Source of the DNA: Candidatus Omnitrophota bacterium | GTDB lineage: Bacteria > Omnitrophota > Gorgyraeia > Zapsychrales > JANLHA01 | Assembly: GCA_029560465.1 (NCBI GenBank) | Contig: JAKQKX010000016.1 | Coordinates: forward strand, 206,221 to 270,220 | Direction of reading: 5' to 3' | Length of the DNA: 64,000 nt | Part shown: positions 1 to 37,539 of the stretch, in pieces | Layout: the number at the start of each line of letters is the position of its first letter | Position numbering within the stretch: position 1 is the first letter of the stretch | Notes under the pieces: generated by a model | The model's database searches: none | What the model was told of the DNA's origin: nothing | What the model saw: the letters and a program-made list of their open reading frames with translations, nothing else | Made by a program: the position numbers and the translations under genes

Positions 1-2278
1 CGGCCCGTGGCAGTATGGTCAATGCGGCTATCCCGGGTATTATGACGACACTTATCTTGTGGATTTCCGGGAGCCGACCAATCCTCTTTGCAGCCCGATT
101 TTTGGGGACGTGTTCGGCCCGAATAAAGATGAATGCTGCAATTATCCGGAGCCGAGCGTGCAGTGCGGCGGCACGTGGGATGGCGTGGATTATCCCGAAA
201 CCACGTGTATTTATGGCGCAAGTAAACCGGCCAATCCTAATTGCCCGGATTGTTTTGGCGGGGTCGAAGAAATGTGCGATTACTGCTGCGACTATGAGGT
301 CACCAGCGCCCATTGCGGGGACGGCGTGACTTATCCGGTGACAACGCTGTTTGAGACGTTGACACCTGCTAATCCCAGCTGTGATGTTCTTGTTGACCAG
401 GCGACGCCTGACGGCTGCTGCGGATACGGGGGATTCACCCGGATTTGCGGTTATGACGGCCGTCCCCTGACAACGTCTGTCCAGGTTATGACGCCGACGC
501 AGAATTTCGCGGAATGCCCCACGGTCGTGCAGAATGAAATCGCGAATGACCCGTTCTGCTGTGGTTACGGCGGCTTCCAGGCACCGCAATGCGGATATTC
601 CGGCTGGTATCCGGGTCATACGCTGCTGGAAGTGAACGAACCGAGCAATGCGTACCCGGGGTGTGACCCGCTGTTTCAGAATGTCGTCCCGAATGAATAT
701 ACCTGTTGCGCTTATGGATCGGCGACATCGGCCTGCGGGGACGGCGTGACGTACCCGACGAGTTCCTGGGTTACCACCCAGATATCGGCCACGGGGTGCG
801 ACCCGATCGTGACCGAACAGGCGAATCATCAGAGCTGCTGCGATTACCCGGCGTCCCCGACGACGGAATGCGGGGCTTTGAGCTATCCTATCACGTATCT
901 GGTTTCTTATTTTGAGTCGCCCACCAATCCTACCTGCGCGGTGCAGATTGTGGGGGTCCCGGCTTTTGATGAGGTATGCTGCCAGTATGGATCCCTGCAG
1001 CAAAGCTGCGGGGACGGGGTTATGTTCCCGGTCACGGATTACGTGAGCTGGCAGGAACCGGGGATTGTCCATGCGTCCTGCCCGATCAAAGTGATCAGCC
1101 AGATTCACAATGATAACACTTGCTGCGGATACCCGCCGACGTATACCCTGATGTGCGGATACGCGCCTTTAGGGTATCCGGAAACAACCCGGGTGGAAAT
1201 TAAAGAGCCGACTTTGACCGAATGTCCAGTCAGGTCCCGGAATCCGTATCCGTACCACGACACGTGCTGTGAGTATACGACGAACTATTATTGTGGATAC
1301 GGGGCCCCTTTAAACGTTCCGGCTACGCATTATGTTGCGGTGAAGGAACCCGGCGGGGGCAAAAGCTGCCCGGTCGTTAAGGTGAGCCAGACGAATTACG
1401 CGGAAATTTGCTGCGGGTACACGACCGGCACAACCGAGGATTTGGGCTGTGGGGCCTCCTATGACGGGCTGACCTGCAACTATGACCGAAGGTTGATCGT
1501 GACCACTCCGGTTAACACTAATTGTCCTGTGCAGAAGACGTGTACGTATGCCGCCTCGTGCACGACATGTTCAGCTGGAGAAACGCTGGCCTGTCCTCCG
1601 GTCAACGGCTGCCCGTATCAGCGCGTGTGCGTGGGCGGTGTCTGGAGCGCTTGCCAGCAGGCCAACCCGGTCTGCACGCCAGGAGAAGTCGTGAATTGCG
1701 AGCCGAACCCTGACGGGTTTATTTCCAGGAAAACGTGTAATATTTGCGGAACAGGCTGGGGGCCGTGCTGGTGCGACCCGCAGGAAACCCAGATATGCAC
1801 GACGTCATCTTCGTGCCCGGGGATCGGGACCTGTTCCGGCGGGGGATGGACGGCTTGTGAGCAGAGCAATCCGACCTGCGGGCCCGGCAGCACCCGGGAC
1901 TGTACTCTGGGCGATGGGAACCCGGGAGTGGAAGAGTGCGTCTCCTGCGGGAATGCCTATGAGGCGTGCCGGTGCCTTCCTGGGGTGGTGTATTGTTATA
2001 TTGATGGTGTCTTAGGGACGCAGAGCTGTAATACCTCAACCGGCCTTTACGGGACATGCGTTTGTATCAGCGGATCAACAAAGACCTGTACGGCCGCGAC
2101 CGGTTGCACTTCGGGGGTCGTGTATTGTAACAATGCGACCGGCGCTTTTGACGGGGCGTGCGAGCTTCCTTATAGTGACTGTACCCCTGGCGCAACCCGT
2201 TCCTGTTTGAAATATTTTATCATCCCCGGGACGGAGTCGTGTACGGACTGCGGGAATTGGAGCGGCATTTGTTTGTAA
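1..2278 (+). CDS. Cysteine-rich tandem-repeat protein (5-prime partial; reading frame open to window edge)
   Basis: Frame 2 is open from nt 2 (GPWQYGQCGYPGYYDD...), so the tracked GTG at 59 is internal. There are about 10 copies of a ~50-55 aa unit: CC-x-Y-x(5-9)-CG-x(3-5)-YP ... P-x-NP-x-C. The C-terminal ~230 aa is a different Cys-dense module (CPPVNGCPYQRVC, CWCDPQ, CRCLPG). The protein has more than 85 Cys. Confidence 0.6.
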   Translation, partial: GPWQYGQCGYPGYYDDTYLVDFREPTNPLCSPIFGDVFGPNKDECCNYPEPSVQCGGTWDGVDYPETTCIYGASKPANPNCPDCFGGVEEMCDYCCDYEVTSAHCGDGVTYPVTTLFETLTPANPSCDVLVDQATPDGCCGYGGFTRICGYDGRPLTTSVQVMTPTQNFAECPTVVQNEIANDPFCCGYGGFQAPQCGYSGWYPGHTLLEVNEPSNAYPGCDPLFQNVVPNEYTCCAYGSATSACGDGVTYPTSSWVTTQISATGCDPIVTEQANHQSCCDYPASPTTECGALSYPITYLVSYFESPTNPTCAVQIVGVPAFDEVCCQYGSLQQSCGDGVMFPVTDYVSWQEPGIVHASCPIKVISQIHNDNTCCGYPPTYTLMCGYAPLGYPETTRVEIKEPTLTECPVRSRNPYPYHDTCCEYTTNYYCGYGAPLNVPATHYVAVKEPGGGKSCPVVKVSQTNYAEICCGYTTGTTEDLGCGASYDGLTCNYDRRLIVTTPVNTNCPVQKTCTYAASCTTCSAGETLACPPVNGCPYQRVCVGGVWSACQQANPVCTPGEVVNCEPNPDGFISRKTCNICGTGWGPCWCDPQETQICTTSSSCPGIGTCSGGGWTACEQSNPTCGPGSTRDCTLGDGNPGVEECVSCGNAYEACRCLPGVVYCYIDGVLGTQSCNTSTGLYGTCVCISGSTKTCTAATGCTSGVVYCNNATGAFDGACELPYSDCTPGATRSCLKYFIIPGTESCTDCGNWSGICL

Positions 2279-2295
2279 GTTGATGTGATCCTATT

Positions 2296-2358
2296 CATGC
2301 GCCCCGCGGCGTTCTCATCGTGTTGTCAGGCATCATCGCGGGGCGCATGAACTTTTTG
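2296..2358 (+). terminator. Rho-independent terminator-like hairpin after Cys-rich gene
   Basis: A perfect 13-bp inverted repeat, CATGCGCCCCGCG (2296-2308) / CGCGGGGCGCATG (2337-2349), is followed by the T-run aacTTTTTgggg. Confidence 0.5.
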
Positions 2359-2504
2359 GGGCCCAAGTGTATCCCCATCTTCCTTCAATATTATTATCCG
2401 GCCAGCAGTTTAATTCGTGTTTCTTTTCTTCCCCCTTGACTTTGGTGTATTACTGTATTATGCTTATAATACACATGGGTTCTGTGGATTTTGGAGAATA
2501 AATT

Positions 2505-2909
2505 ATGACAGAAGAGTCTAATTTTTATTTTCATATTGCGACAACATCCGGCGTCCCGATTTACCGGCAGATTATCGATCAGGTGAAAACACTAGCTGCT
2601 TTCGGCCGGGTCAGCCCCGGCGATTTCCTGCCTTCTGTGCGGCAGGTGGCCCAGGAACTTGAGATTAATCCGATGACGGTTTCTAAAGCGTATTCCTGGC
2701 TTGAGAAGGAGGGGGTCCTTGAATCTGTCCGGGGGCAGGGGATGCGGGTTAAAGAAGACAGGATTTCAAAAAAGGACATGAAAGAACGTAAAGACGCTCT
2801 GCTTCCTCTTTTAAAGCAGGTCGTTATCCAGGCCAGCCAACTATCTCTTGAGCCGGAGACGGTTATGGCTCTGCTCGAACGTTTATGGAAGGAGACTCCT
2901 CATGAATGA
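2505..2909 (+). CDS. GntR-family (YtrA-like short) transcriptional regulator
   Basis: N-terminal wHTH (IYRQIIDQVK...GDFLPSVRQVAQELEINPMTVSKAYSWLEKEGVL) with a short C-terminal tail. It is immediately upstream of an ABC transporter, as is typical for YtrA-type GntR regulators. Confidence 0.7.
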   Translation: MTEESNFYFHIATTSGVPIYRQIIDQVKTLAAFGRVSPGDFLPSVRQVAQELEINPMTVSKAYSWLEKEGVLESVRGQGMRVKEDRISKKDMKERKDALLPLLKQVVIQASQLSLEPETVMALLERLWKETPHE

Positions 2910-3780
2910 TCCCGTGATCCAGGCGCAGCGTGTCACCAAGCGGTATAAGGCCAAAACGATCCTCAATGATTTGTTTTTAGCGGTGCCCCGGGGCTCGGTG
3001 TTCGGGCTCTTGGGCAAGAACGGCGCCGGGAAGACAACACTCATCAAATGTGTGTTAGGGCTTGTGTATCCTCAGGACGGGCTGATATCGGTTTTGGGTG
3101 ATAACCCTAGGAATTTTCTGGAGAGGACCAAAGAACGGATCGGTTACGTCCCGCAGTCTGACCGGCCTTATCCCTGGCTGACTGTCCGGCAACTTGTCAC
3201 GTACACGGCATCTTTTTATCCGCTTTGGAATATGGCTTTGGTTGACAGGCTGTTGAAGGAATGGGAACTGGAGGAGGAGGACAAGGTCGGGCTTCTCTCC
3301 GAGGGGCAGGCACAGAAGCTTTCCATTATTCTCGCTCTGGGGCATGAGCCTGAATTGCTGATTTTTGATGAGCCGGTGGCGAGTTTGGACCCGGCGGCGC
3401 GGCGGAAGTTTTTGAAAACGATTTTAGACATTGTTGCGGACCGTGAATGCACGATATTCTTTTCCACGCATATTACGAGCGATTTGGAACGCGTGGCAGA
3501 CCGGGTTGCCCTGCTTAAAAACGGGACGATCGATTTCTGCGGAGAACTGGATGTCCTGAAAGATGAAGTAAAGCGTTTAAGGATTGTCTCTCCCGTCCCG
3601 TTGCCCCGGGATATTCCCGTAAACGGCGTCCTGCGCTGCGAGCTGTCTCAATATGAGGCGGTCCTGTCCGTGCGTGGGTTTCATGCCGGGATCAAATCTC
3701 AAATGGAGCAGCGCCTTAACGCCAGGATTGAAGTGGAAGACTTAAACCTGGAAGAAATATTCCTGGAGCTGCACGCATGA
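2902..3780 (+). CDS. ABC transporter ATP-binding protein
   Basis: Walker A GKNGAGKTT, signature LSEGQAQKL, Walker B LLIFDEP. The start is taken at internal ATG (MNDPVIQ), which overlaps the GntR stop. The tracked start at 2848 lies inside the GntR gene. Confidence 0.8.
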   Translation: MNDPVIQAQRVTKRYKAKTILNDLFLAVPRGSVFGLLGKNGAGKTTLIKCVLGLVYPQDGLISVLGDNPRNFLERTKERIGYVPQSDRPYPWLTVRQLVTYTASFYPLWNMALVDRLLKEWELEEEDKVGLLSEGQAQKLSIILALGHEPELLIFDEPVASLDPAARRKFLKTILDIVADRECTIFFSTHITSDLERVADRVALLKNGTIDFCGELDVLKDEVKRLRIVSPVPLPRDIPVNGVLRCELSQYEAVLSVRGFHAGIKSQMEQRLNARIEVEDLNLEEIFLELHA

Positions 3781-5165
3781 AAACCCGTTATTGTCAGATC
3801 GTCCTTCTTTATTTCCGGTACCTGCCTTACCGGATCCTGGCGCTGAGTCTTCTTGGGACGGCCCTGCTTTCAAGATTTTCCTTAGAACACAGACTTGTGG
3901 CCATCGCGGATGATTTCTTCACGTTTTTTGTCGTTGTCAGCGTGTGGCTGGCTTTTACCGCCGGAGTGCTTTTAAAACGGCAGATGGCCCAGCACCGGGC
4001 TTCGCTCCTGCCGCGCTACCGGCTCCCGCACATTATAGTCCCTTTCGGATTTTTCGCGTTTTTTCTCATCGTTTTTTGTTACTGGCTGGTCAGCCTCTAC
4101 CCGATCATTATTGTGAACCCGGGTGCGATTTGGTCGGTGTTTGTTTTATGCGCCCTTGTGATCTCAGTGGTCATATGGGTGGGTTACCTGTCGATTAACA
4201 TGCTTGTTTACCTGTCTTATTTCTCCATGCTTTTGGTCTCCTGGCAGGCGTATAACCTTGTTGTTTTTTTGACGGAACATACGGCCTGGCAATTTATCGT
4301 GGGTTGCGGGAGCGCCGTGTTGATGTTGGCCTTGGCCAGGAGGGGGATGTTTCTTAAAGAAGAATCCTTTGAGTACGGGTATATTATGATGTGGCCCCAA
4401 AAAGAGTTTTTGCATAATCAAATCAAAGCGGGCGAACTGTACACCCGCAGTGTGCGCGCTTTCCGGAAACGTTTTGGGATGCCAGCTGTGGTCCTAACGC
4501 TTCCGGGATATCCTCGGCGTGCTGCGCTTTGGCGCCGGGCGTTCCACTGGCACCGGATTGATTTTGCTGAATTAAAGGGCATATGGATGGCCTTGCTGGT
4601 CATGACACCGGTGTACCTCGCCAGCATCAGCCGACTGCCTCTCTGGCATGGATTTTTAAAAGACCCGTACAATAATTTCTTGTTGTATACTGTCGCCCCG
4701 GTTTTGCTTGTGCTGTGTGCGAACCACCGTAATATGACGACGTGGGGTTATGACGTGCTGAAGCCTGTCCGCAAGGGAGATTTTGTGCAGGAGCAGGGGG
4801 TGGCCCTGGTCGCAGGGCTGGGCTTTTATTGGTTCCTGTTCGTTTTTTACCTGGTTTTAACCCCGCACCTGGTCCTTAAGCCGGCTGAGTTGGCCCTGCC
4901 GCGCTTTTGGGGGTATCTTCTGTTGACGGGAAGTTTCGCGTTGTTGACGTTGTCCTGGGTTATTTTTATGAGCTGTTATTCATCGCGGCCGTGGTTTGTC
5001 ATTATCCACGGGGGTATCCTGTGCATGCTCGCCCAGCTGTTATTCATGGTCAGCGTACGCTTTTCCGGGATGATCAGCCTGGCAGTCAGCGTGGCCTGTT
5101 GGGTGGGCATATATGTATTTTTAAAGAGCGGTTATCGGAAATGGTGTGAAGCCGAATTCAACTAG
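3777..5165 (+). CDS. Polytopic membrane protein, putative permease partner of ABC ATPase
   Basis: ATGA overlap with the ATPase stop. It has more than 10 hydrophobic helices and no recognisable soluble domain. Confidence 0.45.
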   Translation: MKTRYCQIVLLYFRYLPYRILALSLLGTALLSRFSLEHRLVAIADDFFTFFVVVSVWLAFTAGVLLKRQMAQHRASLLPRYRLPHIIVPFGFFAFFLIVFCYWLVSLYPIIIVNPGAIWSVFVLCALVISVVIWVGYLSINMLVYLSYFSMLLVSWQAYNLVVFLTEHTAWQFIVGCGSAVLMLALARRGMFLKEESFEYGYIMMWPQKEFLHNQIKAGELYTRSVRAFRKRFGMPAVVLTLPGYPRRAALWRRAFHWHRIDFAELKGIWMALLVMTPVYLASISRLPLWHGFLKDPYNNFLLYTVAPVLLVLCANHRNMTTWGYDVLKPVRKGDFVQEQGVALVAGLGFYWFLFVFYLVLTPHLVLKPAELALPRFWGYLLLTGSFALLTLSWVIFMSCYSSRPWFVIIHGGILCMLAQLLFMVSVRFSGMISLAVSVACWVGIYVFLKSGYRKWCEAEFN

Positions 5166-5207
5166 GGCGGGCTTGAGGAAAAATTTAATGAGAAAGGAGG
5201 GGTTCCT

Positions 5208-5417
5208 ATGACACCGGAAGCCATTCGAAGTTTATGTAAAGCGGCTGCTTTGGTTTCGGCTGTGGCAGGCGCTTACGGCATGATGTTATGTGTGCCGTTC
5301 ATCGCCGGCACGCAGGTGGTTTTGATTGCCGCCGCCAGCTTGCCGTTTATCGCCGGAGCCGTCTTGGTAGCCGGAGGGTTGGTCAGTTACACGCTGCTCA
5401 TTCGCAAAGAAGCATAA
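5208..5417 (+). CDS. Small membrane protein (2 TM)
   Basis: 69 aa, mostly hydrophobic, with a GGAGG RBS upstream. Confidence 0.35.
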   Translation: MTPEAIRSLCKAAALVSAVAGAYGMMLCVPFIAGTQVVLIAAASLPFIAGAVLVAGGLVSYTLLIRKEA

Positions 5418-5516
5418 TGTTTTTCAACAGGCGGCCGCCTGGTTTTTTGAAGCGGATGACCCGTGAATAAGAATGGTTTTGGCGGGGGCTAACGGGGAGC
5501 CAGAAGGAGGGGGGCG

Positions 5517-6314
5517 TTGCCGAAGGTCCAGGAATATTTTAAACTTGCGATGCATTTAGCCGGCTCCGCAGCGTTCGGGTGCGTCGCGGCGATCGCTTGG
5601 CATGAAGCCGGCCACATTATTTTTATCCTGGGTTGCGGGGGAGAGGTGACGGGAATCCACGTGCAGCCTTTTACCCGGTCGGCGGTGACATATAACATCC
5701 CGGCCACTGCGTCGTCCTGGATTGCGGCCTCGGGTATTTTAGCGGGGGTAACGGGCGGGGCGGTCCTGTTGGTGCCCTTGAGGGCAACCCGGAATCCTTA
5801 TGCGCTGCCGCTGGTGATGGCGGGGGTCGCGTCCTGGCTCGGGAACGGCTTATATCTCGTTTTAGGGAGCACCATTTTGAAGGGGTTCGGTGATCCGGGC
5901 CGGATGATCGCGCAGGGTTTCCCGGTCGGCGGGCTTTTTACGGCGGGGGTTTGTTGTGTGGCCTTGGGCGGCCTGGCGTTTATGCGGTTCCTTCCCCTGA
6001 CGGGTATTTCCCCGGACATGGCCATTTTGCCGCGGACGGGGATATTGCTCGGCGGTGTTTTCCCTTACCTGGCCGGGATCATTATTTATAATGGCATTCA
6101 TGATTTCCCTCGGCTCATGCGTTATTGCGTTTTTATGGCGTGGATACTGGGCCTGGCCTTATTGGGGAGCTGGATGGCGGGGCATCCGGCGGCGCGCTTG
6201 TTTAGAGGCGCGTATCCTGTTTTATCTGTCCGTTGGCCTCATGCCTGGACAGCGGCCGGCCTTGGGATTGGCGTTATTGCTGCGGCGCTTTATGCGGCGG
6301 GCGCCGCTGTTTAA
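5517..6314 (+). CDS. Integral membrane protein with HExxH motif (putative intramembrane metalloprotease-like)
   Basis: TTG start preceded by AGGAGG. WHEAGH is embedded in a hydrophobic segment. It has multiple Gly-rich TM helices. Confidence 0.35.
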   Translation: MPKVQEYFKLAMHLAGSAAFGCVAAIAWHEAGHIIFILGCGGEVTGIHVQPFTRSAVTYNIPATASSWIAASGILAGVTGGAVLLVPLRATRNPYALPLVMAGVASWLGNGLYLVLGSTILKGFGDPGRMIAQGFPVGGLFTAGVCCVALGGLAFMRFLPLTGISPDMAILPRTGILLGGVFPYLAGIIIYNGIHDFPRLMRYCVFMAWILGLALLGSWMAGHPAARLFRGAYPVLSVRWPHAWTAAGLGIGVIAAALYAAGAAV

Positions 6315-6359
6315 GGCAGTGTTGGCAGGGATGCTCCCGGTTCAAGAAGGATACTTTTT

Positions 6360-7049
6360 ATGCACGCGTTTTTCTCTTTTATAGCGGCGGTGTTGCCCGC
6401 CTTACTTTTGGTGAGGTATTTTTACAAGGCCAACCCTGCGCCGAAAAGGTTTATTGTTAAGGTGTTTCTCCTCGGAGTTATCTATACACTGCCGGTTTAT
6501 ATCCTGGAAGTGATCCTGGCTCGGTATAATATGTTTCCCCGCTGGTCATTTGTCCTTTATTATTTCTTTGAAGCCTTTATCGTCGCAGGATTATGCGAGG
6601 AATATATCAAATTAAGGATTATTAAAAAATATGTTTACGGAACCGTTTTTTTTCAGGGGGAGCGGGACGGCATTATTTTTACTGTGGTGGCCAGCATGGG
6701 GTTTGCCTGCATGGAGAACATCCTTTATGTGGTCAATCATTCTTGGAATATGGCGCTGGCCCGGGGCTTCACGGCGGTGCCCATGCATGCCGTTTGCTCT
6801 GGGGTGATGGGCTATTCTTTGGGGAAGGCCAAGCGTTCTCAGATATTAAACCGCCTTGCGGAAGAAAAAAAATATATAAATCAAGGGTTGTGGGAGGCGA
6901 TTTTGATCCACGGGTGTTATGATTTTTTTCTTTTTTTATCGCCGATATTAGGGTCTGTTTTCGCGATGTTCACGATCCCGCTTGTTTTAGGATATTACCT
7001 GGAACTCAGGAATAAGATGAAAAGGATGGGGCCGGAGGCCCGAATATAA
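6360..7049 (+). CDS. PrsW-family intramembrane protease-like protein
   Basis: EE-x-x-K (GLCEEYIKLR), FACMENILY and two His-containing TM motifs (HAVCSG, LIHGCYDFFLF) match the PrsW/CPBP-type signature. It has ~6 TM. Confidence 0.5.
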   Translation: MHAFFSFIAAVLPALLLVRYFYKANPAPKRFIVKVFLLGVIYTLPVYILEVILARYNMFPRWSFVLYYFFEAFIVAGLCEEYIKLRIIKKYVYGTVFFQGERDGIIFTVVASMGFACMENILYVVNHSWNMALARGFTAVPMHAVCSGVMGYSLGKAKRSQILNRLAEEKKYINQGLWEAILIHGCYDFFLFLSPILGSVFAMFTIPLVLGYYLELRNKMKRMGPEARI

Positions 7050-7064
7050 ATAAAGGAAGGTTGT

Positions 7065-7508
7065 TTGACAAATTTTATCTACAACTTGTTCGCTTACCCA
7101 TCGGCCTGGCTGACCGCTGTGTTTCATGACGCCGCGATTGCCTCCGCTAACGGGGGGGAGCTCTGGATCCTGCTCGTTCCCCGCCCGATTCATGTGACGC
7201 CGGAGTGCTGCGGGTTCAATTTTTTCGTTTTGCTCGGTGGTTATACGCTGTTGTTTATTTTACGCCGTTACCCTAGGCCCTGCGCCGGGCCTGCAGTTCT
7301 GCTGGCGCTTCCCGTGGTCTATGTGACAACCATTTGCGCCAACGCCGTACGGATGACATGTGCGTATCATGTGGCCTGTTTAAGCCGGACGCTGTTCCCC
7401 GCGTGTTTTCAGCCGGTGATTCACATGGCGGTGGGGATCGCCGTTTTTTTAAGTGCCCTTATCTTGAGCCATTTATTGATCGAAAGGATCGGCCTCTATG
7501 GAAAATGA
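7065..7508 (+). CDS. Minimal exosortase/archaeosortase-family protein (XrtN-like)
   Basis: TTG start with AAGGAAGG RBS. Candidate catalytic Cys (PECCGFNFF), Asn-x-x-Arg motif (ICANAVRMT) ~50 aa downstream, and a following His (AYHVAC). It has 4-5 TM and is only 147 aa. Confidence 0.45.
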   Translation: MTNFIYNLFAYPSAWLTAVFHDAAIASANGGELWILLVPRPIHVTPECCGFNFFVLLGGYTLLFILRRYPRPCAGPAVLLALPVVYVTTICANAVRMTCAYHVACLSRTLFPACFQPVIHMAVGIAVFLSALILSHLLIERIGLYGK

Positions 7509-10473
7509 CGCGCGGGAATCCGTTTTGCCCGGAATCTTAAAAAGGACCACGATGCTTTTCTGGGTTTTTATCCTGCCCCAAAGCGTGCTGTTAGCGCTCA
7601 ATTGTTTTTCCTTCTGGATTATCCGGGAGGAAATCCTCCCGCAAAATCTTATGGCGTCCTCGGTGTTGTTCGGCAGCGAAGTGTTCCTGATCGTGTTCCT
7701 TGGGGCTTTGTTTTATTCCTGGAAACGGGGCGGGCGCCGCGAGATCCCATGGACATGGAATTGGTTTTTTCTTTTGTTCCACATCGCCTATTTGTGGTTT
7801 GCGACGTCCGAGATCCCGCATATTATTCCCGGTGCTGTGGAATCCTGGGTTCTTGACCTGGGGCAGGTGATCCTGCAGCAATACACGTTTATGATGCCGG
7901 GATTATTTTATGCGGCGATGCGGCTGGCGTGTTTTGAAACCCGGTTGGACCGGGGGGTTGATATTGGGCGCAGCTTGCTGGTGGCGGTGGCGGCGCCCGC
8001 ATTATGGTATACGGCCATGCTGGGGTTGTCAACGTGCGTCCGGTGGACGTGGGGCTGGTTTCCGCCGGTTGTGGGGATTATTTTTTTCGTCGGGACCACC
8101 CTGGTCACGCTTGTTGCGCTGATCCGGCTGAGCGTGTTCTTTTACGGTTGGTATCAGAAGCGGGACCCTTGGATTCACAACACGGTTATCGCGCTGGTCG
8201 CAGTCGCCGGCCCGTTGGCGGGTTTGCTTTTGAACGCGCATATCCCTTTTCCGGCTGATTTTCAGGCCCCAGGGATATACATTTTAGCGATCTTAAACGG
8301 GCTTGTCTTGCTTGCCCCCTCGCTTTGGGGTGTCCGCGGCAAGGGCTGGCTTCTGTTTTTGCGCGCCTTGGCATATCCTTTTACCGTTTATTTCTTCCTG
8401 GTTTTTCTCCCCTTTCTGCCTTTATCGCTTTTAGCGATTTGCGCTCTGGGCCTGGGTTTTCTTTTCCTGATTCCGTTAACCTTGTTTTTGATTCATACGA
8501 AGATTCTTGTTGAAGACGCCCGGATGTGGTCGGCCCGGCGGGGACGGGCATCGGCTGCGGTTTTGCTTTGCTCCGCCTGTCTGGTTTTGCCGGGTTATTT
8601 GATCCTGGAAGCGGCGTGGGATAAGTCCGCCATTCAGCAGGCGCTGGATTACGTGTATTCTGCCGATTATGAACAACCGCAGCATTTTCAGGGTTCCCTT
8701 TATACGGTCAAGAAAGTTTTAGTCAAGATGAAGCGGGTTAAAGCCGGGGCCCGGATGCCGTATCTTTCCGCTTTTTATAATAAAGTCGTTTTTAACGGCA
8801 TGGTTTTGCCTGATGACAAAATCGAATATATGTACCGGCTTTTTACAGGGGAAGCTGTGCCGGATGTGCAGGCTCCGGCGGCTTTTTTCGGCGGGAGAGG
8901 TCGTTTGCGGTCTTCCCGGGGCGGGGGACAAGGCCGCCGGATACAGCGTAACCGCGAGGTTATATTGTCTTCGTTCAAGAGGTTCAGTGAGGATAAGGAG
9001 TTTACCACCGTCACAAGATTACAGTTGTATATGCAGAACACCGGCGGGGATGATGCGGCGGAATTTTTTCAGGAATGCGAGATCCCCGCTGGTGTTCTGA
9101 TTTCGGATTTCCGCCTGCTTGTGAACAAAGAAGTCGTGCGGGGGCAACTGTTTGAAAAAGAAACCGCCACGTGGGTTTATCATATGATTCGGGACTGGAC
9201 GCGCCGTGATCCGGGGCTCCTTGTTTATGTTTCGCCCACCCGGGTGGAGATGAGTGTCTTCCCGTTTCAGAAAAACGAAATGCGTTACGCCGAATTGGAA
9301 TTGACGTATCCCCGGGGGATGGCCCCGGTCATCAAGATCGGCCAATATCCGATATTTTTGAAAGATAGCCCCGTGCACAATGGGGCGATGCCGATGGCCT
9401 TGACGGGCGGCGATCCCGGCGGGGAGGATTATGCTTTTGTCCTGACGCATCCCGCGTATTCTTCCCTGTTCTTCAGGCGGAAGCCTTACCTGCATTTTAT
9501 CCTTGATTTTTCCGCCGGGTCGGAATTGTCTGCGGATGCCGCCCTGCCGAGGATTCTTGAGGCGGCTTCTGTGTTCCCTGAGGCGGACCTGGTCCATGTC
9601 AGCGCGGTGAATTTTGAAGTTGAGCTCTTGAGTCGGGATTATATTGCTGTCCGCGATAAGGCGCTGATCCGGGCGGCGATAGACGCGGCCCGTCTTCCCC
9701 GCCGGGGGAGCGTGGACCTGTCCCGGGCGATGAAACGGATTTTGTCGCTTTATCAGGCCAAGCGGGCAGCCGGGGTTCCCGAGACATGGCAGCGGTATCC
9801 GGTTTTTGTTGTTATCTCGGATAGGGCAGACCATCTCCTAGGGCCGGACGATATGGCGTTTTATCAGGACCTGGTTCCGGAACAGACCCGGTACTATATT
9901 TCGACCCTGGACCAGGGTTTAAAAGATTACCCCCTTTTCCTTCCCAGCGCGGTTGCCACGGAACAGGTCGTGGTGATTAAACACGGCCCGCACATTTCTT
10001 GGGTCCCGGTTTCCGCGGACCCGCAATGGCGGTTGGCCGCAAGCCTTGGACAAAATCTGAAGGCTGTTTATGAAGTGTATTTCCCCGGGGAAGACATGTT
10101 TGCTCCTTTACAGTCCATGCCCCTCCCTTCCCAGTCGGATTACGCGCAGGATATGGGGCTTTTTATCCGTAACGCCCGTATGATGAAGAACCCCGCCAGG
10201 TTGGCGTCGGGGCTGACGGCGCTGGTGCGGGACAGTAAGTCCAGGCGGGTCATGATCCCATCGACGTCCTATATTGTCGTTGAGCGCAGCTCTCAGTGGA
10301 AAACCTTGACTAAGAAAGAGGGGCAGAAAATGGCCAGCGCGCCGGGGTTGGAATTTGAAGAGGATTTTGATACTCCGGCGCCTTCGATGTGGCTGGTTGG
10401 AGGACTGTTTCTCCTGTGGTTGTGCCGGCGGCAGCGAAGACCGGGCCGTTTCCTGGCCCCGTCTGTCCGTTAG
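7498..10473 (+). CDS. Large polytopic membrane protein with VIT-like and vWA-like domains and a C-terminal sorting-signal-like tail
   Basis: Overlaps the upstream gene by 11 nt. The N-terminal ~330 aa has more than 10 TM. The central part is VIT-like (ECEIPAGVLISDFRLLVNKEVVRGQLFEKETATWVY), then vWA-like with a near-MIDAS motif LDFSAGSE. The C-terminus is PAPSMWLVGGLFLLWLCRRQRRPGR, i.e. motif, TM helix, then an Arg cluster. Confidence 0.55.
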   Translation: MENDARESVLPGILKRTTMLFWVFILPQSVLLALNCFSFWIIREEILPQNLMASSVLFGSEVFLIVFLGALFYSWKRGGRREIPWTWNWFFLLFHIAYLWFATSEIPHIIPGAVESWVLDLGQVILQQYTFMMPGLFYAAMRLACFETRLDRGVDIGRSLLVAVAAPALWYTAMLGLSTCVRWTWGWFPPVVGIIFFVGTTLVTLVALIRLSVFFYGWYQKRDPWIHNTVIALVAVAGPLAGLLLNAHIPFPADFQAPGIYILAILNGLVLLAPSLWGVRGKGWLLFLRALAYPFTVYFFLVFLPFLPLSLLAICALGLGFLFLIPLTLFLIHTKILVEDARMWSARRGRASAAVLLCSACLVLPGYLILEAAWDKSAIQQALDYVYSADYEQPQHFQGSLYTVKKVLVKMKRVKAGARMPYLSAFYNKVVFNGMVLPDDKIEYMYRLFTGEAVPDVQAPAAFFGGRGRLRSSRGGGQGRRIQRNREVILSSFKRFSEDKEFTTVTRLQLYMQNTGGDDAAEFFQECEIPAGVLISDFRLLVNKEVVRGQLFEKETATWVYHMIRDWTRRDPGLLVYVSPTRVEMSVFPFQKNEMRYAELELTYPRGMAPVIKIGQYPIFLKDSPVHNGAMPMALTGGDPGGEDYAFVLTHPAYSSLFFRRKPYLHFILDFSAGSELSADAALPRILEAASVFPEADLVHVSAVNFEVELLSRDYIAVRDKALIRAAIDAARLPRRGSVDLSRAMKRILSLYQAKRAAGVPETWQRYPVFVVISDRADHLLGPDDMAFYQDLVPEQTRYYISTLDQGLKDYPLFLPSAVATEQVVVIKHGPHISWVPVSADPQWRLAASLGQNLKAVYEVYFPGEDMFAPLQSMPLPSQSDYAQDMGLFIRNARMMKNPARLASGLTALVRDSKSRRVMIPSTSYIVVERSSQWKTLTKKEGQKMASAPGLEFEEDFDTPAPSMWLVGGLFLLWLCRRQRRPGRFLAPSVR

Positions 10474-10542
10474 GCCCGCCGGCTGTATGATCAGCTTTGT
10501 TTTTAATGGCAAAGTTGTTTAGTTTCTGTTAAGATAATCGCC

Positions 10543-11319
10543 ATGAAGCGATTCTCTCCGTATTGGTTTCGTTGCATTTTGCCTTTAGGGATCTTTTGGA
10601 TGGTGGTATGCGGCTTTTCTTCCGTCACCTTGGAGGACATTGAGACCGCGGTGATTGAGAGGGAGTACGCGAAGGCAAAATCTTTGGCCCAGAAATTCCT
10701 GGATGCGGGGCCCGGACTCGCCCAGAAAAACGAGGCCATGTATTTTTTAGGGTTAAGCGAGCTTTTTCTGGGGGAACCCGAGAGCGCCCGGGAAATATTT
10801 GTGAGGGTCTTGAATAATAATCCCAATCCCCATTTGAAAGGCCGGGTCCTGATTGGCGAAATCGATGCGTATTCTTTTCAGGATAAATATGAAGTGGCGC
10901 TGCATAAAGCTGAGGCGTTGTTGCGCGATAAACCCGACAGAGGGATGGAAGGGCTCATTTATTTGAAAATCGCCCGGGCGAATTTGAGGTTGGGCCGCTG
11001 GGAGGATTCCCGCCGGGCCCTGAATAAGATCATTGCCCTGGGTCCTGACAGCCTGGAAGCCGTTACCGCCCGGCAGCTTTTGGAGGAAAAACAATTTTTT
11101 TCCGTGCAGTGCGGATCTTTCCTGCAGAGGTCCCATGCCGAGAATCTGGTTGCGGAACTTAAAGATCGGGGAGAATACGCGTATATCGTTGAAACGGTTG
11201 ACAAAAACGGGACCGGCTTTTACCGTGTGCGGGTCGGGCGCTTGACAACGCTTCTTGAAGCAAAAAATTTAAAAACGAAACTGGCCAATTGGGGTTATCC
11301 TACCTTAATCTATCCCTAG
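10543..11319 (+). CDS. TPR-repeat protein with C-terminal SPOR (septal peptidoglycan-binding) domain
   Basis: Signal/TM at the N-terminus and TPR-like helices. The C-terminal FSVQCGSF...GFYRVRVGRLTT...A..L matches the SPOR consensus. Confidence 0.6.
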   Translation: MKRFSPYWFRCILPLGIFWMVVCGFSSVTLEDIETAVIEREYAKAKSLAQKFLDAGPGLAQKNEAMYFLGLSELFLGEPESAREIFVRVLNNNPNPHLKGRVLIGEIDAYSFQDKYEVALHKAEALLRDKPDRGMEGLIYLKIARANLRLGRWEDSRRALNKIIALGPDSLEAVTARQLLEEKQFFSVQCGSFLQRSHAENLVAELKDRGEYAYIVETVDKNGTGFYRVRVGRLTTLLEAKNLKTKLANWGYPTLIYP

Positions 11320-11320
11320 C

Positions 11321-12262
11321 ATGCCGCATAAGCGCATTATTTTTATCGTCGGCCCGACCGCGGTCGGAAAAACAGAGGTGGCCTGTTTGCTGGCACAACA
11401 GCTGGACGCGGAAATTGTGTCTTGTGACGCCATGCAGGTTTACCGGGATGTGGATATCGCCACGAACAAGCCTTCCTGGGATATCTTAAATCGGGTGCGT
11501 CATCATCTCATTGATATCCGGGACGTTGAGGAAGAGTTTGACGTCGCTGCTTTTGAAGACCTGGCGTTGCGGTCGATCCGGGAGATTCAGGCCCGGCAGA
11601 AAACGGCCCTTGTCACTGGCGGCAGCGGAATGTACATGCAGATTCTTTTAGACGGTATTTTTGAGGGGGCGCCTAAGCAACAACACGTGCGGGATGAATT
11701 GTGGCAGCGGGTCGAAGCCGAAGGGGCCGGCGCGCTTGTGAAAGAACTTGAGGCCCGGGATCCGGCTGCGGCGCAGAAAATTCATCCGCATGATGTCCGA
11801 AGGCTTGTCCGTGCGTTGGAGATTTGCCGCTCCACGGAGAAGCCGTTTTCACAACTTAAAAAAGAACGGCAGGGGCTCTGGGGGCGCTATGATATGACGC
11901 TGGTCGCGCTCAACCGCCAGAGGGAAGAATTATATGCCCGTATCGATGCCCGGGTGGAGAAGATGTTTGAGGACGGCCTTGTGGAGGAAATCCGCCGCCT
12001 TCTGCGCCGCCCTTTAAGTATAACGGCTGGGCGGATTATTGGTGTCAGCGAAGTGGCGGGTTGCTTAAACCAAGATTATGACGAAAATCATGCCCGGTAT
12101 TTAATGAAATTGCACACCCGGCATTACGCGAAACGGCAGCTCACATGGTTTCGCAAGGAGGCGCGGCTTCGCTGGGTCGATATCCAGAAGGAGATGACGG
12201 CGGATGATGTGGCTGAGCATATCAGGGCGAACGTTTTCCAGCCCGGCGGGCAGGAGCGTTAG
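11321..12262 (+). CDS. miaA: tRNA dimethylallyltransferase
   Basis: IFIVGPTAVGKTE P-loop, DAMQVYRDVDIATNKP, ...LIDI... conserved MiaA blocks. Confidence 0.85.
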   Translation: MPHKRIIFIVGPTAVGKTEVACLLAQQLDAEIVSCDAMQVYRDVDIATNKPSWDILNRVRHHLIDIRDVEEEFDVAAFEDLALRSIREIQARQKTALVTGGSGMYMQILLDGIFEGAPKQQHVRDELWQRVEAEGAGALVKELEARDPAAAQKIHPHDVRRLVRALEICRSTEKPFSQLKKERQGLWGRYDMTLVALNRQREELYARIDARVEKMFEDGLVEEIRRLLRRPLSITAGRIIGVSEVAGCLNQDYDENHARYLMKLHTRHYAKRQLTWFRKEARLRWVDIQKEMTADDVAEHIRANVFQPGGQER

Positions 12263-12293
12263 GATTGAACCTTTAAGATAGGACTATTAAAAT

Positions 12294-13565
12294 ATGGTGG
12301 GCGAAAAAGAAAAAGTTTTTTTGGTGGTTATAGATTATGAGTTGACTCGCGGTTGGCAGATTGACGAGGTCGCGCGGGAAATGGAAGAGCTGGTCCTGGC
12401 CTGTTACGGGGATGTGGTGGAAACCTTGATCTGCAGGCTGGAGAAGCCGACGGCGGCTTATTTCCTTGGAAAGGGGAAAGTCCAGGAGTTGGCCGCGCTT
12501 TGCGCCCAGCTTGAGGTGGATACCATGGTGTTCAGCCATGACTTGAAAGGGAGTCAGCAGCGTAACCTGGAGGAAATTCTTAAAGTCAAAACGATCGACC
12601 GCACCCAGTTGATCCTGGATATTTTCGTGCGTCACGCCACAAGCCAGGAAGGGAAGATGCAGGTTGAGCTGGCGCAGCTGGAATATCTTCTCCCGCGTCT
12701 CGTCGGGAAAGGGATCGCGCTTTCCCGGCTGGGCGGCGGCATCGGGACCCTGGGGCCGGGGGAAACCAAGCTGGAAGTGGACCGCCGTCGTATCGGGGAG
12801 CGGATTGCCAAACTGAAGAAAAATTTGAAAGAACTGTCATTCAGCCGCGCGACCAAAAGGAAGAAGCGTCATGATTTGTCTTTGCCGCTCATATCGCTTG
12901 TGGGCTATACCAACGCCGGGAAATCGACGCTGTTGAACCGCTTGACCGGCGCTGAGCAGTTGGTCCGAGACGGGCTGTTCACGACGTTGGATTCGTTGTC
13001 CCGGCAATGTGTCTTGCCCAACCGTCAGAAAGTGATCTTGTCTGATACAGTGGGGTTTATGCATAATTTGCCGCACAATTTGATTGAAGCTTTCAAAGCC
13101 ACTCTTGAAGAAGTGGTCTTTGCCGATATGCTCCTTTTGGTCCTGGATGTCAGCGATGTCCATTTCCGGAACCGGCACAACGCTGTTTTAGAGGTGTTAA
13201 AAGAGCTGGGGGCGGACCAGAAGTTGATTATAACTGTTTTAAACAAGATCGACCTCATTGATGACCGGGCTTGGTTGAGCGAGCTGAAAAGCATTTGCCA
13301 GCATCCTGTCGCGATTTCGGCCGGGACCGGAGAACAGGTGGAGGAATTGTTGAGGACAATTCAGCGGTTGCTCGGAGAGTTTGTCACGGAGGTGGACGTG
13401 ACCCTGCCGATATCCCGGATGGACCTTGTTCATCGCGCTTATTCTGAAGGCCAGGTTTCTGCGGTGAAATATTATAATGAGGCCATTTATCTGCGCGCAT
13501 CGGTTCCTTCTAAAACAGCTTCCTTTTATTATAACGGTCAAATTTCCAAGCCAGAAGAATCGTAA
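12294..13565 (+). CDS. hflX: GTPase HflX
   Basis: HflX N-domain, then G-domain with G1 GYTNAGKST, G3 DTVGF and G4 NKID. Confidence 0.85.
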   Translation: MVGEKEKVFLVVIDYELTRGWQIDEVAREMEELVLACYGDVVETLICRLEKPTAAYFLGKGKVQELAALCAQLEVDTMVFSHDLKGSQQRNLEEILKVKTIDRTQLILDIFVRHATSQEGKMQVELAQLEYLLPRLVGKGIALSRLGGGIGTLGPGETKLEVDRRRIGERIAKLKKNLKELSFSRATKRKKRHDLSLPLISLVGYTNAGKSTLLNRLTGAEQLVRDGLFTTLDSLSRQCVLPNRQKVILSDTVGFMHNLPHNLIEAFKATLEEVVFADMLLLVLDVSDVHFRNRHNAVLEVLKELGADQKLIITVLNKIDLIDDRAWLSELKSICQHPVAISAGTGEQVEELLRTIQRLLGEFVTEVDVTLPISRMDLVHRAYSEGQVSAVKYYNEAIYLRASVPSKTASFYYNGQISKPEES

Positions 13566-13626
13566 TGTTTTGTGAGTCAATGATTTCCGAATGGTTAGAT
13601 AATCTAACTAGAATAATTAGAAATAC

Positions 13627-13655
13627 TTGACAACACGGTTAGATTGTGTTATATT
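13627..13655 (+). promoter_or_regulatory. Sigma70-type promoter with embedded palindromic operator upstream of hspR
   Basis: TTGACA (13627-13632), 17-nt spacer ACACGGTTAGATTGTGT, then TATATT (13650-13655). The spacer is itself an ACAC...GTGT palindrome containing GGTTAGATT. A 7-1-7 perfect palindrome GTTAGAT-A-ATCTAAC sits at 13594-13608. Confidence 0.5.
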
Positions 13656-13683
13656 TTCCGTGAGATTAGGGAGAGATATAAAA

Positions 13684-13959
13684 ATGGATGAACCATATCC
13701 AGACAATTTTGATATTGAAATTAATCCAACCGAACCTTTATTCGTCATTAGCGTTGTCAGTGAAATGGTTCACATTCCCATCTGGACATTGAGGAAACTG
13801 GATGAAAAAGGAATTGTTTGCCCGGAGAGAATCGGTAAGAAAACCCGCTGTTATTCCAAGGAGCAGATCAAGAAATTGAATTATATCCGTTATTTGTTAT
13901 TTATCAAAAAAGTTAATATCAGTGGCATACGGATTATTTTAAATTTGGAAGAAGAGTAA
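13684..13959 (+). CDS. hspR: MerR-family heat-shock repressor HspR-like
   Basis: ISVVSEMVHIPIWTLRKLDEKGIVCPERIGKKTRCYSKEQIKKLNYIRYL matches the HspR HTH block. The start is taken at ATG 13684 (RBS GGGAGAG), because the tracked start at 13627 lies inside the promoter. Confidence 0.7.
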   Translation: MDEPYPDNFDIEINPTEPLFVISVVSEMVHIPIWTLRKLDEKGIVCPERIGKKTRCYSKEQIKKLNYIRYLLFIKKVNISGIRIILNLEEE

Positions 13960-14030
13960 TTTTTTTTATTCTAAAGATAGCAGTCTTAGGCAGAGTCTGC
14001 TAAAACGGAAAACAACAAAAGGAGGGTTTT

Positions 14031-14474
14031 ATGTCACTCATAAAATGGAAAAGAGCAGAATCAGATATGTGGAATGATGTTTTTGATTTGCAGCATCCGT
14101 TTCTGGGGTTGTCTCTTCTCCCTTTAATAGGGGAAGGCGGCGGCCCCCGGGTATTTTTCCCGGCCTTTGATGTTACGGATAACAAGGAACAATTCGTTGT
14201 TAAAGCGGATGTCCCGGGCTTGAAGAAAGAGGATATCCAGATTCATCTGGACCGGAATATTTTGACGGTCCGGGGAGAACGAAGACAGGAACCGGATAAA
14301 GAGGATGGGGGCTACCGGAGGATCGAGCGTTCTTCCGGGGCCTTTGAGCGTAGCGTTGTTTTTGATTCCAAGATCGATGCCGCGGGAGCGACAGCGAAGT
14401 ATCAGGATGGGGTGCTTGAGATCGTCCTCCCGAGAACGAAAGGATCAGAAGCGCAGCGCATTGAAATTAAGTAA
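14031..14474 (+). CDS. Hsp20/alpha-crystallin small heat-shock protein
   Basis: ACD block FVVKADVPGLKKEDIQIHLDRNILTVRGER...GAFERSV...DGVLEIVLPR. It has a GGAGGG RBS. Confidence 0.85.
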   Translation: MSLIKWKRAESDMWNDVFDLQHPFLGLSLLPLIGEGGGPRVFFPAFDVTDNKEQFVVKADVPGLKKEDIQIHLDRNILTVRGERRQEPDKEDGGYRRIERSSGAFERSVVFDSKIDAAGATAKYQDGVLEIVLPRTKGSEAQRIEIK

Positions 14475-14500
14475 TAATGGCGTATGGGACACTGGGGGCA

Positions 14501-14523
14501 GGGGAATGGCTGGGCCATTCCCC
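14501..14523 (+). other. GC-rich stem-loop in hsp20-clpB intergenic region
   Basis: GGGGAATGG-ctggg-CCATTCCCC is a perfect 9-bp stem. No downstream U-run follows. Confidence 0.4.
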
Positions 14524-14579
14524 TGTAGCTCAATCGCATATTTAATAAAATAGAATTTCTTTAAAGAAAAGAGGCGGCC

Positions 14580-17183
14580 ATGTTGCCTTTCAACAAATTT
14601 ACGAATAAAAGTCAGGAAACTCTGCAGAAAGCCGTTGAGCTGGCCGGGGAACTCCAGCATCAGCAGGTCGATGCGGAGCATGTGATTTTGTCGCTTTTGC
14701 AGGATAAGGCCGGAGTCGTTCCTGCGATCTTGGGGCGGTTGAGCGTCTCGGCGGAATCCGTGTCTTCTGTCTGTGAAAGGGAATTGAGTAAAAAGCCTCG
14801 GGTGGAGGGGCCGCCGCCTTTTTTATCGCCGGAGATAACGAAGCTCCTGTCCCAGGCCGTTAAGGTTGCGGGGCAGATGAAAGATGAGTACGCTTCCCAG
14901 GAGCATATGTTACTCGTCCTGTACCGGGAAGGAAAGAACTCCCTCGGCCGGGAATTAAGGAAACACGGCGTGTCCGAAGAGGATCTCTTGCGCATTCTCC
15001 GGGAAATCCGGGGGGGGCAGCAGGTCACGGATGCCAACGCGGAGGAGAAGTACCAGGCTTTGGAGCGCTATGGCCGGGATTTAACGGCTTTGGCGGGGGA
15101 GAGAAAGCTGGACCCGGTGATCGGGCGTGACGCTGAAATACGGCGGGTGATCCAAGTTTTGTCCCGGAGAACCAAGAATAATCCTGTCCTCATCGGCGAA
15201 CCGGGGGTCGGCAAGACCGCTATCGCCGAAGGCCTCGCCCAGCGGATTTTTTCCGGGGACGTGTCAGAGGGGTTAAAAAACAAAAAAGTTGTCGCCCTCG
15301 ACATGGGGGCGCTGGTCGCGGGGGCTAAATACCGGGGAGAATTTGAGGACAGGTTGAAAGCCGTGCTGAAAGATGTGGAAAACCGTGACGGCGATGTGAT
15401 CCTTTTTATTGACGAACTTCATACGATTGTCGGGACCGGGAAGGCGGAAGGCGCGCTGGATGCCTCCAATCTGTTAAAGCCCGCTTTGGCCCGTGGAACT
15501 TTGCGGTGCGTCGGGGCGACCACCCTGGATGAATACCGCACATATATTGAGAAAGACGCCGCTCTGGAGAGGCGATTCCAGCCGGTGATTGTCAGTGAGC
15601 CGTCTGTGGAAGACACGATCGCGATCCTGCGGGGGCTTAAAGATCGCTATGAAGTCCATCATGGCGTCCGCATCCAGGACGCGGCTTTAATCGCAGCCGC
15701 GACGTTATCCCAACGGTATATTACGGAGCGGTTTTTGCCGGACAAAGCCATTGACCTTATTGACGAGGCCGCTTCGCGGCTGCGTATTGAAATCGACAGC
15801 ATGCCTCAGGAGCTTGACGTCAATGAGCGCCGGATCCGGCAGTTGGAAATAGAACGGCAGGCGTTAAAAAAAGAAAAGGACGAAGCGTCGGTCAAGCGCC
15901 TGCGGGCGCTTGAAGCGGACCTGGAAGGGCTTAAAGAGGAGAATAAAAAGTTGCGGTTACGCTGGGAAGCCGAGAAAGAATCCATTCATAAAATTCAGTC
16001 GATCAAAGCGGAGATTGACCGGCAGAAGAGCGAGGAAAGCCGTTTTGAGAAAGAAGGGAACTTTGGGAAAGTCGCGGAGATCCGTTATGGAATCATAGTG
16101 GATTTGGAAAAGAAACTTCAGGGAGAAAATCAGTCGCTCTCTGTCCTGCAGGCCAGCGGCGCTCTTTTAAAAGAAGAGGTTGATGATCAGGACATCGCGG
16201 AAATTGTGTCGCATTGGACAAAAATACCGCTGTCCAAGCTGATGGAGGGGGAGACGGAGAAATTGGTTCACATGGAAGCGTGCCTGAAGTCCAGGATCGT
16301 GGGGCAGGAGCAGGCTGTGGATTTGGTCGCGGCCGCCATCCGCCGCTCACGGACGGGGCTCAGCGATCCGCATCGCCCGATCGGCTCGTTTATTTTTGTG
16401 GGGCCGACAGGAGTCGGGAAAACCGAGCTGGCCAAATCGCTGGCTTGGTTTTTGTTCGACGACCCGGAAGCGTTGATCCGGATCGACATGAGCGAATACA
16501 TGGAGAAGCACAGTGTGTCCCGGTTGATCGGGGCGCCTCCGGGTTATATCGGCTACGATGAGGGGGGGCAACTCACGGAGGCGGTTCGGCGGCGGCCATA
16601 TACGGTCGTGCTTTTTGACGAGATTGAAAAAGCCCACCACGACGTTTTTAACGCCTTGCTGCAGATTCTGGATGACGGGCGATTGACCGATGGCCAAGGC
16701 CGGGTTGTCAATTTCAGGAACACGATTATTATCATGACATCCAATATCGGGGCGGAGGTTTTTGCCGACAACACAAGTGACGCGCGCGTTGAGGCCCGTA
16801 TTAACGACGCGCTTAAAGGGGTCTTCCGCCCGGAATTTTTGAATCGCGTCGATGAGAAAATTATCTTCAACCGTCTTAAGGAGGAGGATATCCGGCAGAT
16901 TGTTGATATCCAGGTCAGCATTTTGAAGGACAGGTTGGCGCAGAAAAATATGGCGCTTTCCATTACTCCGGAAGCCCTGTCATGGCTCGGCCAAAAGGGG
17001 TATGATCCGGTTTATGGAGCCAGGCCGTTAAAGAGGGTGGTTCAAAAATACGTCCAGGACCCCGTGGCCCTCATGATCCTTCAAGGGGAACTTCGGGAGG
17101 GAGACGGGGTGAACGTGGATGTTTCCAGGGACCAGAAGGGCGCTCTGCTGGTCAAGAAATCTTCCCCCGATTCTGGAATATAA
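14580..17183 (+). CDS. clpB: ATP-dependent chaperone ClpB
   Basis: Clp N-domain, NBD1 GEPGVGKT, long coiled-coil M-domain, NBD2 GPTGVGKTE. 867 aa. Confidence 0.9.
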
Positions 17184-17292
17184 TAATTGAGAAATTATAA
17201 TGATTTGATAGAATAGGAATACTCTTGGGTGTCCCTTGGAATGGTGAACGGACGGTAGGTTGCGGTGGCTTAACAGATTAAAAGGATCGAAT

Positions 17293-17964: not shown

Positions 17965-17972
17965 GTCGCTTT

Positions 17973-18593: not shown

Positions 18594-18672
18594 CGTTCCT
18601 GTTCCTGCTGGTTCCCGGAAGTTCTCGGGAGAGGGCAACGGCAGGGCGGGGGGAAAGGAAAGAAAAACATTA

Positions 18673-18700: not shown

Positions 18701-18706
18701 ATCCGC

Positions 18707-37536: not shown

Positions 37537-37539
37537 ACT

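Follow-up and report, generated by a model that had tools for sequence, protein, structure and literature searches.

Exosortases and archaeosortases, and the tripartite C-terminal signals on which they act, have been described as an enzyme family with a proposed catalytic triad of Cys, Arg and His (Haft 2023, 10.1101/2023.06.07.544157). The same work calls a system dedicated and one-to-one when consecutive genes encode the enzyme and its target. Two described systems are of particular relevance here: the PEP-CTERM signal (TIGR02595, PF07589), whose exosortase, XrtA, serves many targets (Haft 2006, PMC1569441), and the MSEP-CTERM protein (TIGR04286) with exosortase K (XrtK, TIGR04287). We analyzed a 64-kb stretch of DNA (1..64000; hereafter, the window) from a Candidatus Omnitrophota bacterium, in which a minimal sortase gene overlaps the gene for a 991-residue protein that ends in a short motif, a hydrophobic segment and a basic cluster. 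We assign a probability of about 0.8 to the reading in which this tail serves as C-terminal sorting signal for an MSEP-CTERM-family protein, represents a lineage variant of the PEP-CTERM signal with Ala in place of the central Glu, and is cleaved by the XrtK-like enzyme encoded next to it.

The window pair shares with the MSEP-CTERM/XrtK system a target composed of a polytopic N-domain, a VIT domain, a vWA-like domain and a tripartite tail, and an overlapping upstream exosortase gene as found in Hymenobacter. It differs in its motif, which is T-P-A-P and not M-S-E-P, in its host, which belongs to Candidatus Omnitrophota and not to Bacteroidota, and in the score of its sortase on the XrtK model, which is 29.4 bits (cutoff 55). 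With the PEP-CTERM/XrtA system it has in common the tripartite signal and an exosortase-family enzyme with Cys, Arg and His. Moreover, orthologues of the window protein bear true PEP motifs. By contrast, the window holds one target per enzyme (within 64 kb) where the PEP-CTERM system has many, Ala takes the place of the motif Glu, a polytopic domain of ~380 residues stands where PEP-CTERM proteins have an N-terminal signal peptide, and the enzyme is only 147 residues long, whereas typical exosortases have eight or more membrane helices (Haft 2023, 10.1101/2023.06.07.544157). A third system, the XrtN system VIT protein (TIGR04477) with exosortase N, likewise consists of a VIT-domain protein and a dedicated exosortase; its protein and the window protein have a membrane segment (residues 283-353) and the VIT region in common. 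However, the window protein scores 43.6 bits against a cutoff of 250 on this model, which indicates a related family and not membership. The enzyme and single-target pair in the window is of an already curated kind, MSEP-CTERM with exosortase K, and the tail is not a new signal. As the pair is curated and the protein carries the corresponding name in GenBank, the system is ordinary and has little discovery value.

The C-terminal tail and its protein

The 991-residue protein is encoded by an open reading frame (ORF) at 7498..10473 (+), of which 10375..10473 (+) specifies the last 32 residues (960-991), PAPSMWLVGGLFLLWLCRRQRRPGRFLAPSVR, and the stop codon; read slightly further upstream, the C-terminus is GLEFEEDFDTPAPSMWLVGGLFLLWLCRRQRRPGRFLAPSVR, followed by the stop codon. 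Four parts make up the tail, and an acidic pre-motif precedes them. The acidic pre-motif GLEFEEDFD (10345..10371 (+), residues 950-958) has counterparts throughout the family in the form of [A/G]LEF followed by acidic residues, and its Leu951 is nearly invariant. The signature motif T-P-A-P (T959-P960-A961-P962; 10372..10383 (+), residues 959-962) was delimited by the alignment of family tails described below. The hydrophobic segment MWLVGGLFLLWLC (10387..10425 (+), residues 964-976, i.e., the 13 residues from M964 to C976) is, as read from its sequence, a predicted membrane-spanning helix; AlphaFold2 places a low-confidence helix at 964-979, and all full-length relatives have a hydrophobic run at this position. 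The basic cluster RRQRRPGR (10426..10449 (+), residues 977-984), a putative cytoplasmic stop-transfer element, corresponds to Arg/Lys clusters in nearly all relatives. The final extension, FLAPSVR and the stop codon (up to 10473 (+)), is not conserved and varies in length and sequence among relatives. The Cys that precedes RRQRR and the 10 residues past the basic cluster are likewise not conserved, even among orthologues that are 70-79% identical.

We aligned 153 distinct family tails from a conserved upstream anchor. The second motif position (P960) is Pro in 125 tails and Ser in 21, the third (A961) is Ala in 76 and Glu in 65, with a few Thr, Ser or Asp, and the fourth (P962) is Pro in 150 of the 153 and nearly invariant in the full-length alignment as well. 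P-A-P is thereby the commonest form sampled. The alignment thus shows that T-P-A-P occupies the positions of the x-P-E-P found in many relatives and of the M-S-E-P found in Bacteroidota-type members, to which M-S-E-P was limited among the members sampled. A literal M-S-E-P is absent from the window tail, whose aligned positions read T-P-A-P and have only the last Pro in common with it. Either TPAP or TPEP is found in orthologues with 70-79% identity to the window protein, TPEP in one that is 73% identical. When 101 full-length proteins without their tails were placed on a neighbour-joining tree, the central motif residue changed at least 13 times on it and the prolines were unchanged. That the central residue is free to vary and both prolines are fixed provides a testable hint as to what exosortases recognise. 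These counts also make the family name misleading outside Bacteroidota, as most sampled members have P-A-P or P-E-P and not MSEP.

These data bear on an earlier note on this DNA. It had placed an unusual tail at 10375-10473, which are indeed the last 32 codons and the stop, and had described it as tripartite and of exosortase type, a layout that the motif, helix and basic cluster confirm. Its statement that the motif is neither PEP nor MSEP is literally correct, but by alignment TPAP is equivalent to x-P-E-P and M-S-E-P, and the 73%-identical orthologue has TPEP. The note had also likened the acidic EFEEDFD to a spacer often found before such tags; this stretch does lie directly upstream of the tail, but it is no generic spacer, being part of the family-conserved [A/G]LEF-acidic motif, in which Leu is retained in at least 90% of tails. 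Finally, the note had made its reading depend on conservation of the tail in orthologues, and the 153 tails show it to be conserved across phyla.

The relation of the family signal to PEP-CTERM was examined by grouping the tails by motif and scanning them at E ≤ 0.015, which approximates the 16-bit cutoff of TIGR02595. The generic PEP-CTERM model matched 25 of the 43 PEP-bearing tails, which identifies the family signal as a true relative of PEP-CTERM, and none of the 71 PAP tails. The window tail alone gave no match to TIGR02595 or PF07589 even at E ≤ 10. Compared with the PEP-CTERM definition, it has the helix and the RRQRR cluster, while its motif is P-A-P, with the Glu replaced. The Glu-to-Ala change hides the window tail from the generic PEP-CTERM model. 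Because PAP tails escape this model, motif-based censuses of exosortase substrates will miss them.

The protein itself clearly belongs to the curated MSEP-CTERM family. On TIGR04286 ("MSEP-CTERM sorting domain-containing protein", NCBIfam), for which the cutoff is 150, it reaches 384.6 bits. The alignment extends over residues 15-980 (profile positions 4-915 of 920) and thus continues through the tail, and each half of the protein alone exceeds the cutoff (180.2 and 178.9 bits). Two identical GenBank entries from Candidatus Omnitrophota metagenome-assembled genomes, HPN55818.1 and HOY08986.1, bear the same name. An AlphaFold2 model generated from 40 homologues, with a mean predicted local distance difference test (pLDDT) score of 84.4 and a predicted template modeling (pTM) score of 0.83, shows eleven long helices (residues 18-387), a beta-rich region, an alpha/beta region, three helices within 881-946, a low-confidence linker and the final helix at 964-979. 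The N-terminus is therefore formed by the ~380-residue polytopic domain and not by a signal peptide. A VIT domain (Pfam) was detected at residues 503-603 with 24.3 bits, just under the gathering cutoff of 26.5. Taken together with structural matches to ITIH1 and vWA, the Pfam and AlphaFold2 results give an architecture of polytopic N-domain, VIT/vWA-like ectodomain with a following helical region, and tripartite tail, which is that of the MSEP-CTERM family.

The best structural match of the whole ectodomain (VIT, vWA and the following region) is ITIH1, the mammalian inter-alpha-inhibitor heavy chain 1 (PDB 6fpy; Foldseek E 1.8e-10, ~597 columns). The two differ in that sequence identity is only ~12%, that ITIH proteins are without membrane domains or an exosortase, and that the MIDAS (metal ion-dependent adhesion site) motif of the window protein is incomplete. 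Within the ectodomain-encoding segment (8959..10300), D670 and S672 of this motif are conserved and the third Ser is not. The heavy chains of inter-alpha-inhibitor have their C-termini ester-linked to the glycosaminoglycan chondroitin sulfate (PMC7170535). With respect to C-terminal transfer to a glycan, the ITIH likeness is suggestive and serves as an analogy only.

The neighbouring sortase gene and its pairing with the target gene

The presumed processing enzyme is encoded by a minimal, XrtK-like exosortase gene at 7065..7508 (+). This gene starts with TTG, is preceded by an AGGAAGG ribosome-binding site, and shares its last 11 nucleotides, which include the stop codon, with the start of the target gene. 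The 147-residue product matches TIGR04178, the exosortase/archaeosortase signature, with 27.4 bits against a cutoff of 23. Among the sortase and 69 homologues from related loci, Cys48 (codon 7206-7208) and Arg96 are each kept in 70 of 70 sequences and His120 in 69, and Asn93 and Gly124 are retained in 69-70 of the 70. The protein is named "hypothetical protein" in GenBank (HPN55817.1) and exosortase/archaeosortase family protein in IMG. No other sortase-like ORF was found in the window besides 7065..7508.

Two further positions of the sortase were noted across 58 sortase-target pairs. Position 52, four residues past Cys48 (~7218-7220), is mostly Thr with a PEP target and Asp, Gly or Ser with PAP, and position 41 (~7185-7187) is often Arg with a PEP target and Pro with PAP. 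As this covariation of positions 41 and 52 with A961 is confounded by phylogeny, we did not use it as evidence of recognition.

The XrtK model was run on the window sortase and on the sortases of five related loci (L003, L006, L015, L061 and L082). The Hymenobacter (Bacteroidota) gene in the equivalent position, upstream of the target gene and overlapping it, encodes a bona fide XrtK (118.3 bits), whereas the Thalassotalea, Omnitrophota, Verrucomicrobia and Opitutaceae partners reach only 27.7-45.5 bits, all below 55. On the basis of these scores, the window sortase is best interpreted as an orthologue of XrtK missed by the Bacteroidota-trained model, and synteny supports this orthology. The XrtK model is drawn too narrowly, as its cutoff misses every non-Bacteroidota partner tested, and such sortases are consequently annotated as hypothetical proteins.

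Relatives of the 991-residue protein were found by one conserved peptide pattern in the genomes of 346 species, from which 80 loci were taken (numbered with an L here); these came from Omnitrophota, Verrucomicrobiota, Lentisphaerota, Kiritimatiellota, Planctomycetota, Gammaproteobacteria and other groups. An iterated hidden Markov model (HMM) search located a sortase homologue upstream of the target on the same strand in 70 of the 80, adjacent or overlapping in 65 of those 70, and the gene pair is thus preserved across phyla. Two of the 80 loci had no upstream sequence to search. In the window itself, a six-frame pattern scan revealed no second ORF with P-x-P, a hydrophobic run and a basic C-terminal cluster; other ORFs end in a hydrophobic run and basic residues but lack the preceding P-x-P. 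An HMM of the tail, run against 8,738 ORFs from the window and the 80 loci at E < 0.01, had a single match outside the family, an ordinary PEP-CTERM protein with a signal peptide in L061. The window thus contains one tagged ORF and one sortase, and, as judged within 64 kb, the pair agrees with how a dedicated one-to-one system has been defined (Haft 2023, 10.1101/2023.06.07.544157).

The remaining proposals of the earlier note can be assessed from these results. It had postulated a dedicated minimal sortase next door, which the passed exosortase signature, the presence of Cys48, Arg96 and His120 and the 11-nucleotide overlap bear out. It had further suggested that one enzyme serves one substrate; the single sortase and single tagged ORF of the window and the pairing in 70 of 80 loci support this, although the arrangement is not new. 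Lastly, the profile of orthologous tails that it had proposed was built and run, with the single non-family match given above. A one-enzyme, one-substrate pair with an enzyme of 147 residues would lend itself well to studies of exosortase chemistry.

Proposed processing and rival explanations

By analogy with the mechanism described for exosortases and archaeosortases (Haft 2023, 10.1101/2023.06.07.544157), the N-terminal 11-helix domain would insert in the inner membrane, so that the VIT/vWA (ITIH-like) ectodomain comes to lie in the periplasm. With P-A-P at the outer face and RRQRR inside, the tail helix would then cross the membrane, and the inside location fits with eleven helices before the ectodomain and one after it. 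The XrtK-like cysteine enzyme would recognise P-x-P and the geometry of the helix and cleave near the motif, which would remove the tail helix and basic cluster, and the sortase could possibly transfer the new C-terminus to a lipid or glycan acceptor. Because the N-terminal membrane domain is retained, such processing would remodel or re-anchor the C-terminal end and not release the protein. In this model the system would operate as one enzyme for one substrate.

Several observations weigh against this assignment. The tail alone reaches no CTERM cutoff among the NCBIfam and Pfam models at E up to 10, the best score being 16.2 bits against 20 for MYXO-CTERM. The best named subfamily for the sortase is exosortase K, yet its 29.4 bits fall short of the cutoff. 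Eight of the 80 loci have no detectable sortase in the 1.5 to 8 kb upstream that the iterated HMM search covered. The substrate does not have the signal peptide that is typical of PEP-CTERM proteins, and ~11 helices already serve as its anchor; the topology given above derives from helix counting in the AlphaFold2 model. Finally, a search of the open-access PubMed Central and bioRxiv literature found no mention of XrtK or MSEP-CTERM, and so cleavage, the cleavage site and the acceptor are all inferred. A Flavobacterium paper considered as a source on XrtK was set aside, as it deals with XrtF.

Some of these same points would suit a tail that is an uncleaved C-terminal membrane anchor, with a stop-transfer helix obeying the positive-inside arrangement and a sortase-like neighbour that acts elsewhere or as a non-catalytic partner. 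A protein embedded by ~11 N-terminal helices has no obvious need of release or sorting, its tail lies below all generic CTERM cutoffs, and the literature search was silent on the system. However, a mere anchor would not retain P-x-P at the outer boundary in 150 of 153 tails, nor would it retain the ALEF-acidic pre-motif or pair in 70 of 80 loci with a sortase gene that keeps Cys, Arg and His. Relatives with PEP tails, moreover, score as true PEP-CTERM domains. We therefore regard an uncleaved anchor as unlikely. Processing by another kind of enzyme is suggested by the PrsW-family glutamic-type intramembrane protease (Pfam 98.4 bits) encoded at 6360..7049 (+), directly upstream of the sortase, which could act on the signal in the manner of CPBP-type myxosortases on MYXO-CTERM-like signals. 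Intramembrane glutamic proteases have been proposed for some tripartite signals (Haft 2023, 10.1101/2023.06.07.544157), and the sub-threshold MYXO-CTERM match is in line with such a role. Yet the PrsW gene adjoins the pair only in the three closest of the 80 loci (L001-L003). In signals proposed as myxosortase substrates, the motif contains an invariant Cys (Haft 2023, 10.1101/2023.06.07.544157), and MYXO-CTERM (TIGR03901) identity was rejected because the window motif has no Cys; its score of 16.2 bits is below the cutoff of 20, and the lone Cys, located at the end of the helix, lacks conservation among orthologues. Cleavage by the PrsW-type protease is thus very improbable.

The sortase-less loci raise a different alternative, an ordinary PEP-CTERM signal served by a general, XrtA-type exosortase encoded elsewhere in the genome. 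Five of the eight have intact C-termini (L014, L018, L025, L049 and L073; ~5 to 8 kb upstream searched). The tails of L014, L018, L025 and L073 reach the generic PEP-CTERM model with 19.8-25.7 bits against a cutoff of 16, and that of L049 reads VPDAP. Some lineages may therefore have passed the protein to a general exosortase. PEP tails also occur beside an adjacent sortase, in L013 and L015, which makes the correlation between PEP tails and a missing sortase only suggestive. For the window, this explanation is hardly tenable: its tail fails the generic model, as do all 71 PAP tails, its sortase gene overlaps the target gene, and there is no second exosortase within the 64 kb. As for a chance resemblance in a non-conserved C-terminus, the only point in its favor is that short hydrophobic and basic tails carry little information, and conservation of the tail across phyla refutes it, which leaves it with a negligible probability.

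The reading of the tail as an exosortase signal cleaved by the adjacent XrtK-like enzyme permits a further, doubtful extension. The Glu may be dispensable for exosortase recognition in this dedicated branch, with only P-x-P and the helix geometry being read, and the minimal sortase may join the C-terminus of the ectodomain to an envelope glycan or lipid to create a doubly attached bridge, as the 11-helix N-terminal domain would keep the protein tethered at its other end. If true, such a bridge would parallel the C-terminal esterification of the mammalian inter-alpha-inhibitor heavy chains, and the uncharacterised N-terminal domain could provide the acceptor handling that is absent from the truncated sortase.

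Genomic surroundings

The window contains no tRNA gene and no Rfam family at the gathering threshold. The PrsW gene ends 15 nucleotides upstream of the sortase gene and is itself preceded by a gene at 5517..6314 (+) for a 265-residue membrane protein with a HEAGH motif and no family match. Outside the window, the two are encoded beside the pair only in L001-L003, the three closest loci. As they are conserved only in these three loci, the PrsW protein and the HExxH membrane protein were rejected as components of the system.

Further upstream lie three genes on the same strand, encoding an ABC-type ATPase (2848..3780 (+)), a 462-residue polytopic protein with no family match (3777..5165 (+)) and a 69-residue membrane protein (5208..5417 (+)). 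Homologues of the 462- and 69-residue proteins are found in eight Omnitrophota-type loci (L001-L003, L006, L007, L009, L011 and L013), where they are encoded upstream of the sortase, except for the 69-residue homologue of L007, which is downstream. The ATPase has matches in those eight loci and in ten more distant ones. These three genes may be linked to the system in Omnitrophota or may reflect mere synteny. Four loci, L002, L007, L010 and L013, are labelled 'uncultured Planctomycetales' or 'Planctomycetia', and their proteins have 34-76% identity to the one from Omnitrophota. The Omnitrophota-type upstream gene set occurs in L002, L007 and L013 as well. The taxonomic labels of all four may be unreliable.

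Directly downstream of the target gene is a gene for a protein with TPR and SPOR domains (10543..11319 (+)), followed by miaA and hflX homologues. Among the loci checked, these three adjoin the pair only in L001-L003. Past hflX, the window encodes a small heat-shock protein and ClpB, both identified by reading the translations only.

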